Positions 478 through 8,654 of a DNA stretch of 64,000 nt are shown here, piece by piece. The position numbers and the translations under genes are program-made. This stretch comes from an uncultured Clostridium sp. (GTDB taxonomy: Bacteria; Bacillota; Clostridia; TANB77; CAG-508). The notes under the pieces were generated by a model, which worked only from the letters and a program-made list of their open reading frames with translations, was not told where the DNA came from and did no database searches. The stretch's first letter is position 1; each line of letters begins with the position of its first letter. The DNA lies in the NCBI GenBank assembly GCA_900552135.1, contig URYN01000008.1:21326-85325 (forward strand), in the 5' to 3' direction.

Positions 478-1026
478 ATGGACAATAGAAAAAGATGCAA
501 GTGGTGCAATATGAAGAATCCACTATACATAAAATATCATGATGAGGAATGGTGTAGACCAAACTTTGATGAAAAATATTTATACGAGATGCTTACATTA
601 GAATCTTTTCAGGCTGGGCTTTCTTGGGAGTGTGTACTAAATAAAAGACAAGCTTTTGAGATGGCATATGATAACTTTAATATAGATAAAGTATGCCAAT
701 ATGATGATGAAAAGGTTCTAGAACTTCAACAAAACAAAGACATAATCAGAAATAAACTAAAGATAAAAGCAAGTATAAACAATTCTAAAATATTTAAGGA
801 TATTCAAAAAGAATTTGGCTCATTCGACAATTACTTAAAGACTTTTACAGATGGAAAAACATACTATGAAATAGATCAGACAACATCTCCACTCTCTGAT
901 GCTATTTCAAAAGACCTACAAAAAAGAGGAATGAAATTTGTAGGTTCAACAATAATATATTCGTATTTACAGGCAATAGGAGTAATTATATCACATGACA
1001 AAGATTGCTTCCTTTTCGCCCAATAG
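478..1026 (+). CDS. tag: DNA-3-methyladenine glycosylase I
   Basis: Cys-rich N-terminus (CKWCN), YHDEEWCRP and FQAGLSWECVL motifs typical of the Tag family; RBS-like AGGAG upstream. Confidence 0.8.
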   Translation: MDNRKRCKWCNMKNPLYIKYHDEEWCRPNFDEKYLYEMLTLESFQAGLSWECVLNKRQAFEMAYDNFNIDKVCQYDDEKVLELQQNKDIIRNKLKIKASINNSKIFKDIQKEFGSFDNYLKTFTDGKTYYEIDQTTSPLSDAISKDLQKRGMKFVGSTIIYSYLQAIGVIISHDKDCFLFAQ

Positions 1027-1046
1027 GGACGCCCCTTTTTGGGCGA
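1016..1046 (+). repeat. 31-nt GC-rich palindromic hairpin element, copy 1 (TCGCCCAATAGGGACGCCCCTTTTTGGGCGA) followed by T-run; acts as terminator of tag
   Basis: 8-bp stem TCGCCCAA/TTGGGCGA, 15-nt loop, then GCTCTTTTTTAT; same element recurs at 1134, 6996, 7464. Confidence 0.8.
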
Positions 1047-1133: not shown

Positions 1134-1164
1134 TCGCCCAAAAAGGGGCGTCCCTATTGGGCGA
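1134..1164 (-). repeat. 31-nt GC-rich palindromic hairpin element, copy 2 (inverted relative to copy 1)
   Basis: Exact reverse complement of copy 1 (TCGCCCAAAAAGGGGCGTCCCTATTGGGCGA) 87 nt downstream across AT-rich spacer. Confidence 0.8.
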
Positions 1165-5975: not shown

Positions 5976-6974
5976 ATGTTTAAGCCAAAGGCTTTATATT
6001 GTGAAAATAATATTGAAAATTATGTGCTTGGAAGAGAGCTATTAGAAAAATATGCTGATGTTCCAAGAGTGATAATTGACAATCATAATAATATTGAAGA
6101 AATGAGAAAGAAGCAAAATAAAGATTTTGCGGATATGAAACGAAATTTGATAATAGGAGTGAGGAAGACGCATAAGTTTGTTCCAAATCACAAGACATCA
6201 GATTTTCTAGTTCCATATACATCCTCTGGTTGTACAGCAATGTGTATGTACTGTTACCTTGTCTGCAATTACAACAAGTGTGCGTATTTGAGGCTATTTG
6301 TGAATAGAGAAGAGATGCTAGATAAAATTATAAGAACAGCACAAAATGCAGAAAAAGATTTAACCTTTGAAATTGGAAGTAATAGTGATTTAGTTTTAGA
6401 AAATACCATTACAAACAATTTAGTTTGGACGATTGAAAACTTTGCAAATACTTCGAAGGGACATTTAACTTTTCCTACCAAGTTTGATATGGTAGATGAT
6501 ATTCTGACTTTAAAACATAATGGAAAAGTTACTGTTAGAATGAGTGTGAATCCCGAAGAAATTATTAATAAGGTTGAATTTGGTACGTCAAGACTAAAAA
6601 ATAGAGTCCAGGCTATTAATAAATTAGCCGATGCCGACTATCCTATTGGAATTTTGATAGCACCAGTAATTTTAGTAGAAAATTGGAAAGAACTATACTC
6701 GAATTTGATAAAATATCTGTATGAAAATTTGAGCGAAAAGGCTAAGAAACATGCCTTTTTCGAAATTATTTTTATGACATACAGTTTTGTTCATAGAGCA
6801 ATAAATACAGAGGTATTTCCAAATGCCATAGATTTATATAATCCAGAATTGATGAGAGGCCGTGGAAGAGGAAAATATATGTATAAAGACTATATTCGTG
6901 AAGAAGGAGAAAAATTCTTACGAGAAGAAATGCAGAAATATTTTCCGCATAATCAGATTGAATATGTGGTATAA
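5976..6974 (+). CDS. splB: Spore photoproduct lyase (radical SAM)
   Basis: Radical-SAM cysteine cluster SGCTAMCMYCYL; overall SplB-like length; start ATG 5976 after GGTGA. Confidence 0.75.
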   Translation: MFKPKALYCENNIENYVLGRELLEKYADVPRVIIDNHNNIEEMRKKQNKDFADMKRNLIIGVRKTHKFVPNHKTSDFLVPYTSSGCTAMCMYCYLVCNYNKCAYLRLFVNREEMLDKIIRTAQNAEKDLTFEIGSNSDLVLENTITNNLVWTIENFANTSKGHLTFPTKFDMVDDILTLKHNGKVTVRMSVNPEEIINKVEFGTSRLKNRVQAINKLADADYPIGILIAPVILVENWKELYSNLIKYLYENLSEKAKKHAFFEIIFMTYSFVHRAINTEVFPNAIDLYNPELMRGRGRGKYMYKDYIREEGEKFLREEMQKYFPHNQIEYVV

Positions 6975-6995
6975 AGTTCAATTTTTGAACAGCCT

Positions 6996-7026
6996 TCGCC
7001 CATTGGGGACGTCCCTTTTTGGGCGA
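6996..7026 (+). repeat. 31-nt GC-rich palindromic hairpin element, copy 3 (TCGCCCATTGGGGACGTCCCTTTTTGGGCGA)
   Basis: Immediately after splB stop; near-identical to copies 1, 2 and 4. Confidence 0.8.
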
Positions 7027-7050
7027 AAAAGAGTACAAAATTTCCTTCGT

Positions 7051-7164
7051 CCACAAATTGTACAAATTGGAAATAGTACAATTTTTCCCCCGGAACTAAA
7101 TTGTACTGTCCTCGAATTGCAAATTGTAAAAAGTCCAAAATCTCCCCCGGAACCAAATTGTACT
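7051..7164 (+). repeat. Cluster of GTACAATTT/AAATTGTAC hairpin and 24-nt direct repeats (TTTCCCCCGGAACTAAATTGTACT at 7084-7107 and TCTCCCCCGGAACCAAATTGTACT at 7141-7164)
   Basis: Palindrome TTGTACAA 7057-7064; hairpin GTACAATTT-N13-AAATTGTAC 7076-7106; related element at 62837-62899. Confidence 0.7.
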
Positions 7165-7172
7165 AAAAGAGC

Positions 7173-7201
7173 TTGACATAAATATATTTAATTTGTATAA
7201 T
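7173..7201 (+). promoter_or_regulatory. Sigma-A consensus promoter (TTGACA-17-TATAAT) driving the SAM riboswitch/metK leader
   Basis: Perfect -35 and -10 hexamers with 17-nt spacer. Confidence 0.55.
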
Positions 7202-7218
7202 AGGTTTTGTAATATATA

Positions 7219-7326
7219 TATTATCAAGAGTGGACGAGAGAATCGGCTTTATGACTCCACAGCAACCTATTGGGTTAGGTGCTAATACCGACAAAGTTAC
7301 GGAAAGTACTTTGAATGATGATTTCT
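7219..7326 (+). ncRNA. SAM-I (S-box) riboswitch aptamer upstream of metK
   Basis: UUAUCAAGAG...GCAACC...GGUGCUAAUACC...GAAUGAUGA blocks match S-box P1/P2/P3 consensus in order; followed by intrinsic terminator; gene context (metK) is the canonical target. Confidence 0.65.
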
Positions 7327-7336
7327 AAGAATCGTT

Positions 7337-7370
7337 AAACTTTGTACCTGCGCAAGTACAAAGTTTTTTA
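7337..7370 (+). terminator. Riboswitch expression-platform intrinsic terminator (AAACTTTGTAC-loop-GTACAAAGTTTTTTT)
   Basis: 11-bp perfect stem plus U-run. Confidence 0.7.
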
Positions 7371-7463
7371 GCTTTTATAGAAATTAAAATTTATTTTAAT
7401 TAAATCAACTTGAGGGGAAAGAGACATTTGATAAGAAATGTATCTAATTGGGTTTTCAGTATA

Positions 7464-7494
7464 TCGCCCCAAAAGGGGCGTCCCCAATGGGCGA
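7464..7494 (-). repeat. 31-nt GC-rich palindromic hairpin element, copy 4, lying between riboswitch terminator and metK RBS
   Basis: TCGCCCCAAAAGGGGCGTCCCCAATGGGCGA; reverse complement matches copy 3 at 28/31. Confidence 0.8.
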
Positions 7495-7511
7495 TTTTGA
7501 AGGAGGAGAAT

Positions 7512-8654
7512 ATGAAAAGATTATTTACATCAGAGAGTGTTACAGGAGGACATCCGGATAAGCTATGTGATTATATATCGGATAGTATTCTGGATAGTTA
7601 TTTGGCAAAAGATAAGAATGCTAGAGTTGCTTGCGAAACCGTTGCGGGCAAAGGAGAAATTTATATAACTGGAGAAATTACATCGACTGCAAATGTTGAT
7701 ATTGAGCAGGTTGTGAGAGACACCATAAAAGAGGTTGGTTATGCAGATAGTGGGTACGATATTGATTACAGAACTTGCAAAATATACATAAGCTTATCTA
7801 AACAATCTCCTGATATTGCACAAGGAGTTGATAAATCGCTTGAAGATAAAGAAGGACAAGATGTTGAATCTGAAGGAGCCGGTGATCAAGGCTTAATGTT
7901 TGGTTATGCTTGTGATGAAACAGAGGAGTTAATGCCTCTTCCAATTTTGCTTGCACACAAGCTTTCTAAGAGATTGACTGAAGTTAGAAAAGAAAAAATA
8001 ATAGATTATTTAAGACCAGATGGTAAGACACAGGTTACAGTTGAATATGATGGAGACAAGCCTGTAAGAGTGGATACTATTGTTGTTTCTACACAACATC
8101 TACCTGATGTTGATATGGATATTTTAAAAAATGACATAATTAAAAAAGTTATAAAACCAACAGTTCCAGCCAATTTATTAGATGAAAACACAAAATATTT
8201 TATTAATCCAACAGGAAGATTTGTAATAGGTGGACCTCTTGGGGACAGTGGTCTTACAGGTAGAAAAATAATAGTTGATACTTATGGCGGAGCTGCAAGA
8301 CATGGTGGAGGAGCTTTTTCAGGAAAAGATCCTACAAAGGTTGACCGTTCGGCTTCTTATATGGCAAGACATATTGCAAAAAATATTGTTGCAAATGGTT
8401 ATGCAAAGAGATGCGAAATACAAATAGCATACAGCATTGGTGTGGCAAAACCAGTATCAATATATGTAAATACTTATGGAACCAATACAATTCCAGAAGA
8501 AGAGATTATAGAAAAAATAAATAATACATTTGATTTAACACCAAGAGGAATAATAAATTATCTTGATTTACAAAGGCCAATTTATAGACAAACAACAAAC
8601 TACGGTCATTTTGGAAAAAAAGACCTACCTTGGGAGAAAATTATAAAATTTTAA
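7512..8654 (+). CDS. metK: S-adenosylmethionine synthetase
   Basis: [21 protein letters not shown]-terminus, [16 protein letters not shown] and other MetK signature blocks; RBS GGAGGAG. Confidence 0.95.

Follow-up and report, generated by a model that had tools for sequence, protein, structure and literature searches.

Repetitive extragenic palindromic (REP) sequences and bacterial interspersed mosaic elements (BIMEs), known from Enterobacteria, Pseudomonas, Stenotrophomonas and other bacteria, are imperfect palindromes of 20-40 bp that fold into a stable stem-loop and are dispersed in many extragenic copies, mostly downstream of open reading frames (ORFs), between co-oriented or convergent genes and near stop codons, frequently as inverted dimers (PMC3733652; PMC12306157). 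Many REPs lie no farther than 15-20 nt from a stop codon, and for such copies in Escherichia coli ribosome stalling and lowered translation have been reported (PMC3733652; PMC12306157). Here we describe a repeat of this general kind in a stretch of 64,000 nt from an uncultured Clostridium sp. (assembly GCA_900552135.1, contig URYN01000008.1, positions 21,326 to 85,325 of the forward strand), referred to below as the window, where one copy lies in the leader of metK, the gene for S-adenosylmethionine (SAM) synthetase, between a SAM-I (S-box) riboswitch and the Shine-Dalgarno (SD) sequence. This 31-nt hairpin is one copy of an apparently clade-restricted, REP-like dispersed palindromic repeat and is not a part of the riboswitch; the metK leader is an ordinary S-box leader that carries one such copy. 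The best overall explanation, which we hold with moderate confidence, is that a REP-like copy sits at the 5' edge of the metK ribosome site, where its gene-distal sub-hairpin would be kept folded.

Four copies of the repeat are present in the window, against none expected from 100 shuffles:

1016..1046, minus strand: repeat copy 1, B form in the mRNA, supplying the TAG stop of the Tag-like ORF 478..1026
1134..1164, plus strand: repeat copy 2, A form, upstream of the next gene
6996..7026, minus strand: repeat copy 3, reverse-complement (B) form in the splB mRNA, inverted partner of copy 4
7464..7494, plus strand: repeat copy 4, forward (A) form in the mRNA, TCGCCCCAAAAGGGGCGTCCCCAATGGGCGA, a 31-nt GC-rich palindrome

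Copies 1 and 2 are 100% complementary with 87 nt between them, and copies 3 and 4 are 94% complementary and 437 nt apart, copy 3 starting 21 nt after the splB stop codon (6972-6974). The window copies fold at -15.3 to -18.9 kcal/mol (z-scores -1.8 to -4.2), the minimum free energy (MFE) of copy 4 being -15.3 kcal/mol.

The family consensus is TCGCCCAAAAAGGGGCGTCCCTATTGGGCGA, a 31-nt core that extends to (A)nTT-TCGCCCAAAAAGGGGCGTCCCTATTGGGCGA-AA(T)n. At least 119 metagenome stretches contain the exact pattern; those records that are labelled come from human-gut assemblies, and the GC content is about 30% at nearly all loci. A tolerant re-scan yielded 182 matches, 73 of which are identical to the consensus, at no fewer than 87 distinct unrelated sites, with 10 of the 87 inside a called ORF. 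No member was detected by pattern, fuzzy match or nhmmer (best E = 0.7) in the best 80 MetK loci of more distant Clostridia, a set of 1.26 Mb from species-representative genomes with MetK at no more than 80% amino acid identity, which are Clostridia metagenome-assembled genomes from human, rabbit and ruminant guts; judged from these sequences, the family looks clade-restricted. No Rfam family matches the repeat at the gathering threshold or at E <= 10, SAM being the only one found, and the Rfam scan of the 64-kb window reported no tRNA or rRNA. Viral contigs gave zero matches, and a phage origin was dropped. A string search for the element in the papers searched gave no match, and no Clostridia REP family turned up there.

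In palindrome size and fold, dispersal, extragenic bias, 3' bias and the occurrence of inverted dimers, the repeat resembles REPs in general. Its host is different, as it comes from an uncultured AT-rich gut Clostridia lineage and the survey in PMC3733652 reports no Firmicutes family. It also lacks the end tag of the GTAG/CGTC-tagged REPs (Di Nocera et al. 2013), since it ends in TT-TCGCCC and GGGCGA-AA and has CGTC in the apical loop only. Unlike REP/BIME elements, it folds into a two-tier, bulged hairpin with a built-in competing sub-hairpin, and it has an SD-abutting class and a strict ORF-facing polarity, which are described next.

Copies near a stop codon only are in the B form without exception (35 B : 0 A, p = 6e-11), at a median distance of 6 nt after the stop, and those near a start codon only are in the A form in nine cases and in the B form in one, the element ending 0-4 nt before the SD. 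Tight junctions, running from a stop directly to the next SD, have 5 A and 7 B copies. The B form after a stop accounts for 50 of 81 ORF-end adjacencies, and in nine stop-proximal cases, including the Tag-like gene 478..1026 of the window, the TAG inside the element is itself the stop codon. Within intergenic regions of at least 150 nt, 27 of 34 copies lie no more than 25 nt from an ORF end, compared with 8.1 expected. Adjacent pairs are arranged B then A in 28 of 28 cases (about 15 distinct loci, both window pairs included); their gaps range from 9 to 559 nt, and their spacers are unrelated. The TATT side of the element thus always points towards the ORF and the A5/T5 side towards intergenic space, and this fixed polarity places the B form after stops and the A form before SDs in the mRNA; the metK copy is a start-proximal A-form member. 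The orientation changes within one intergenic region and between convergent genes and is therefore not tied to the replication strand. A pattern of position and orientation as clean as this is seen in few REP-like families, and neither SD-abutting copies nor an absolute ORF-facing polarity was found described for REPs.

Two orthologous sites have the element in opposite orientations, namely the end of the window Tag gene compared with locus L141, and L172 compared with L102 and L144 (L numbers designate the loci compared); the distal flanks differ as well. In-place flipping is disfavoured for these sites, as a B..A pair that underwent deletion between its two arms, which share 8 nt, would better account for the differing distal flanks. 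The pair as a mobile unit or as a long-range duplex was ruled out, because the spacers have no relation to one another and covariation between the arms is generally lacking.

Other families of small repeats are less close. Doublets of the REPIN type are likewise inverted doublets of a short palindrome with a single relative orientation, but their spacing is conserved, whereas the gaps here range from 9 to 559 nt and the unrelated spacers include a promoter and riboswitch, so the pair is not a mobile unit of that kind. No gene for a REP-associated tyrosine transposase (RAYT, or TnpA-REP) and no insertion sequence (IS) 200-like ORF was seen in about 1 Mb of sampled DNA by a crude motif scan of six-frame ORFs, which is a weak test. 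Miniature inverted-repeat transposable elements (MITEs) such as Correia/NEMIS of Neisseria, bcr1 of Bacillus cereus, RUP/BOX of pneumococcus and EFAR of enterococci are also small gene-adjacent repeats that are co-transcribed and fold stably. RNA structures of gene-adjacent MITEs can change mRNA stability (PMC3733652). These elements are 100-200 bp long with terminal inverted repeats and target duplications, whereas the present repeat is a single 31-nt hairpin with inverted (TT...AA), not direct, flanks, no visible target-site duplication and no empty allele among the loci searched. Yeast mitochondrial GC clusters and the PstI palindromes of Neurospora are short, mobile-looking GC-rich hairpins scattered in very AT-rich intergenic DNA, often at gene borders, and the organelle GC clusters have been proposed as RNA processing or stability signals. 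Their sequence and host are unrelated to ours, and the likeness is one of analogy only.

Around copy 4, the metK leader consists of the following parts:

7173..7201, plus strand: metK promoter, TTGACA-17 nt-TATAAT, 12 of 12 consensus matches, sigma-70-type
7218..7324, plus strand: SAM-I (S-box) aptamer, RF00162, 70.5 bits, E = 1.9e-14
7337..7369, plus strand: intrinsic terminator of the riboswitch, 11-bp stem at 7337-7366, T6 run to 7369
7370..7463, plus strand: hypervariable leader spacer of 94 nt between the terminator T run and the hairpin, from strain alignments
7465-7480, plus strand: gene-distal sub-hairpin of copy 4, CGCCCC-AAAA-GGGGCG
7499..7514, plus strand: SD sequence GAAGGAGGAG and metK start, with the GGAGG core at 7502-7506 and the ATG at 7512-7514
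7512..8654, plus strand: metK, S-adenosylmethionine synthetase, 380 aa, with PF00438, PF02772 and PF02773

A reading made earlier from the letters of the window (the sequence-only reading) had proposed the promoter, aptamer, terminator and hairpin, and each of them is found where it was placed or no more than a few bases away. The aptamer is full-length (model positions 1-108), scores well above the Rfam gathering score (70.5 against 44.4 bits) and is nearly invariant between lineages, and the promoter is conserved across strains and in the sister lineages L156 and L213. The order of aptamer, terminator and downstream metK is that of an S-box expression platform, outside of which the repeat hairpin lies. 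The same reading had called the riboswitch interrupted, a description that does not hold, as aptamer and terminator are intact and the element is located in the 5' untranslated region (UTR), 94 nt 3' of the terminator T run. Its estimate of about 10 nt between the hairpin and the ribosome-binding site was too large; the measured distance is 4 nt to GAAGGAGGAG and 7 nt to the GGAGG core, copy 4 being directly followed by UUUUG (4 U) and then GAAGGAGGAG. The promoter-aptamer-terminator layout is shared with other Firmicutes metK S-box leaders and is homologous to L007, L008 and L010, and what sets the present leader apart is the additional 94-nt hypervariable spacer and repeat hairpin between terminator and SD. 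The 380-aa MetK product has an exact match on public contigs.

Alignment of the leaders of related genomes, proposed in the earlier reading as a check on the insertion that it had suggested, shows that close relatives carry the segment as a repeat copy and that outgroups are without it. Copy 4 is found at the same place in all 13 same-species contigs that reach the site (L001-L003, L203-L212; MetK 98-100% identity) and also in the sister lineages L156, L101 and L213, the first two of which have 85-87% nucleotide identity to the window. Aptamer and terminator have homologues in the outgroup L008 (82% identity over 172 nt), which is without the element, the distance from the terminator T run to the ATG being 43 nt there and 142 nt in the window, and the element is absent from the S-box metK leaders of L007, L008 and L010. 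A segment carried by all relatives as part of the platform is thus not what was found, and the hairpin as a riboswitch platform part was ruled out, since it is a dispersed repeat and is missing from homologous outgroup leaders. On this sequence comparison, the metK copy is a lineage-specific addition that is old and fixed and entered the 5' UTR before the sampled lineages diverged. The earlier interpretation is supported in that the hairpin is a dispersed repeat absent from outgroup leaders; a recent insertion was ruled out, as all strains and three sister lineages have the copy as a fixed feature. In L156, the copy is set apart from the SD by a 13-nt insertion, with loss of the U run, and in L213, the most widely sampled lineage, the metK copy is degenerate, TCGCCCAAAAAGGTGGCGTCCATAATTGGCGG. 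In a comparison made for signs of constraint, orthologous copies diverge by 2.8-3.0% and their flanks by 5.5%, a difference that is not decisive, as the flanks mix coding and non-coding DNA.

Predicted folding suggests how position and polarity may be connected. The element has three GC blocks, and its 5' CGCCC has two alternative pairing partners, the middle and the terminal GGGCG. In the A form, the intermediate 5' hairpin has -9.1 kcal/mol (-12.3 in the metK copy) with a refolding barrier of 11.4, and in the B form the intermediate has -5.0 kcal/mol with a barrier of 7.6. When the gene-proximal arm is blocked in the model, copies in the observed orientation retain -9.1 kcal/mol before a start and -8.9 after a stop, and copies in the opposite orientation would retain just -5.0 or -6.4 kcal/mol. 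Copies start about 6 nt after the stop codon or end 0-7 nt before the SD; at such spacings a terminating ribosome or an SD-bound 30S subunit would cover the gene-proximal arm. According to the explanation that we favour, the element would act as an asymmetric two-state RNA hairpin, in which the sub-hairpin of the gene-distal two-thirds stays folded while a ribosome, bound at the SD as the 30S subunit or engaged in termination at the stop codon, occludes the gene-proximal arm. The stable gene-distal stem would protect or delimit mRNA ends, and the A orientation would neither terminate transcription nor block initiation. At metK, the SD would be left accessible, and the copy would be a poor terminator because the 5' sub-hairpin forms first. 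After read-through of the SAM riboswitch and cleavage of the leader, the stem might hinder decay in the 5'-to-3' direction or have an insulating role, and it would add no second, SAM-independent checkpoint at metK. With the S-box switch intact and the extra hairpin a resident repeat, the net effect on SAM control of metK is probably small.

Several points weigh against this explanation. Its functional steps derive throughout from folding energies and geometry, and the residual-hairpin advantage is modest (2.5-4.1 kcal/mol). The gene calls behind the position counts are long-ORF heuristics, with long ORFs called around one representative per site, and the sites were sampled by searching for a perfect copy and do not represent a whole genome. 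The decay of the copy in L213 argues that the element is dispensable at metK there. Searches of all the loci compared with flanking-sequence pairs revealed only length variants of 28-40 nt and no empty orthologous site, which leaves the insertion boundaries and any mobility unproven. Finally, a ratio of 35:0 is so absolute that an insertion mechanism, and not selection on RNA function, could be its cause.

In another view, the repeat is neutral selfish or mobile DNA, a non-autonomous element without a role at metK, whose position at gene ends and polarity would come from target choice by a transposase or recombinase and from purging of harmful insertions; we regard it as possible though unlikely. 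Consistent with it, near-identity is seen between copies at unrelated sites (73 of 182 matches equal the consensus exactly), a palindrome, (A)nTT/AA(T)n, is favoured in the flanks, the element can sit in ORF 3' ends and supply the stop (nine cases), the L213 copy is decaying, and 35:0 exceeds what weak selection usually gives. Such an origin is at odds with the lack of a visible target-site duplication or an empty site, with the absence of any IS200/RAYT-like ORF in the crude motif scan of about 1 Mb, with an orientation that, unlike that of IS200/IS605-type insertions, is independent of the replication strand, and with the persistence of orthologous copies across lineages that are about 15% apart in nucleotides. 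A rather unlikely reading goes in the other direction and takes the element for a functional polar ORF-boundary module that would mark and insulate both ends of an ORF, its orientation encoding direction, so as to stop or protect transcripts leaving the ORF and to let transcription and 30S binding into it. If it were true, this gut Clostridia lineage would have replaced scarce GC-rich terminators and 5' stabilisers by one copy-and-paste element. Classical GC-containing terminators seem scarce in this organism of 29% GC, as a crude, loose scan of the window and L084-L202 (at least 3 GC pairs plus a T run, no more than 100 nt from the stop) assigned one to about 7% of ORFs without the repeat; replacement of native terminators by the element was set aside, the scan being too loose to inform it.

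The sequence-only reading had offered a second termination or roadblock point and sequestration of the ribosome-binding site as possible effects of the hairpin, and neither has gained from the analysis. A second intrinsic terminator causing SAM-independent attenuation before metK is improbable. There is a GC-rich hairpin (-15.3 to -17 kcal/mol) directly before UUUUG, and 15 of the 35 copies close to a stop codon have TTTT no more than 10 nt to their 3' side, the background being 20%; however, the tail at metK is just 4 U long, the copy is not recognised as a terminator in the consensus scan, the U tail has been lost from L156 through an insertion of 13 nt, and L213 has a degenerate hairpin. 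Moreover, the competing 5' hairpin of -12.3 kcal/mol forms first and withholds the partner of the last arm behind a barrier of 11.4 kcal/mol, and most start-proximal members precede an SD without a U tract. MetK is a core housekeeping enzyme, and an efficient terminator directly before its gene would be costly on general grounds. A translational switch through sequestration of the ribosome-binding site is highly improbable, even though an alternative fold of the window copy, just 1.4 kcal/mol above the MFE, forms the 5' sub-hairpin and lets the freed UCCCC pair with GGAGGA of the SD. In the predicted ensemble, GGAGG is mostly unpaired with the element in place (probability 0.44-0.77), removal of the element raises this only to 0.81-0.86, and the predicted pairing partners of the SD lie in the coding region and not in the element. 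The CCCC run, moreover, is limited to the strain group of the window, other strains and lineages having CCCT, and the SD is predicted to be unpaired at 0.65-0.94 in L204 and L156. Quite improbable, too, is a role at the DNA level, in which the pair 6996-7026/7464-7494 would be an invertible or recombining cassette or a set of oriented binding sites for a protein that serves as an insulator or polar roadblock. The ORF-facing polarity would be most natural if the site were asymmetric double-stranded DNA, each of the 28 adjacent pairs brackets an intergenic region as inverted copies whose same sides point inward, and copies 3 and 4 both have CCCCAAT in the window strain group, which suggests gene conversion. 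These arms do flank the metK promoter, yet the segment between them is in one orientation in 15 of 15 spanning contigs, and its inversion would strip metK of the promoter; arms of other pairs do not co-vary, most copies are singletons after stop codons, and a candidate binding protein is not known.

The general question of whether REPs do anything, and whether their orientation matters, is turned by this pattern into a flip-the-element experiment. For annotators of AT-rich gut Clostridia, the repeat is a marker of real gene ends, and it also makes gene callers over-extend ORFs. ORFs 7410..8654 and 6862..7176 run through the elements and are read-through artefacts, as had been proposed from the sequence. 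The peptide GRPQW, which had been attributed to both of them, is found in ORF 7410 and in the minus-strand ORF 6772..7065 and is absent from ORF 6862, which reads RPLGTSLFGR. Among the 120 best protein matches of MetK, all with at least 95% identity, nearly all are 380 aa long and start with MKRLFTS; longer public entries of the species are P0052 (424 aa), P0054 (388 aa), and P0022 and P0066 (383 aa). The 424-aa and 388-aa entries are probably the work of gene callers over-extending upstream through the stop-free repeat, as in ORF 7410..8654.

Further observations concern the metK leaders. In the three closest of the species representatives listed (L004-L006; MetK 77-80% identical), no SAM riboswitch is present upstream of metK in the regions examined (L004:1-1268, L005:9350-10000, L006:5500-6158), and in two of the three metK begins about 35-65 nt after the upstream ORF; S-box control of metK was thus gained or lost within the group. 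The spacer 7370-7463 is a hotspot of strain variation, with an 18-nt tandem duplication of TTGAGGGGAAAGAnAC, an indel of about 80 nt and a substitution block or mosaic that begins in the terminator loop and ends at the repeat, and it contains a partly conserved small hairpin, ACATTT-GATAAG-AAATGT, at 7424-7441. Two independent Logan assemblies, L003:1 and L214:1, break at the same aptamer base (about window position 7242), 270-271 nt before metK.

At the window copies, the rare CCCCAAT variant of copy 3 occurs in copy 4 in the window strain group only, other strains having CCCTATT or CCCTAAT at copy 4. Between the splB stop and copy 3, positions 6975-6995 hold an extra 21 nt with a small AT-rich palindrome, GTTCAATTTTTGAAC; this segment is absent in L213 and L156, where the repeat follows the splB stop by 0-2 nt. 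In the region 478-1046, the Tag-like ORF (DNA-3-methyladenine glycosylase I) ends in CFLFAQ followed by the TAG inside copy 1, and at L141:1251-1841, where the element at the equivalent site is opposite in orientation, the ORF reads through it and ends in CFLFAPKGASLLGD before its stop.

A second family of 31-nt palindromes, with AT-rich arms and a GC-rich centre, has the form GTACA(A/T)TTT-[about 13 nt, often CCTCCGTCCCC]-AAATTGTAC. Its copies lie at 7033-7063, 7076-7106, 7133-7163 and 62837-62867 of the window and also at L103:162 and L149:4999. Three of them are located between splB and the metK promoter. A 57-nt unit with one copy is missing in L001 and L002. The second family and the main element have a CGTCC(C/A) core in common.

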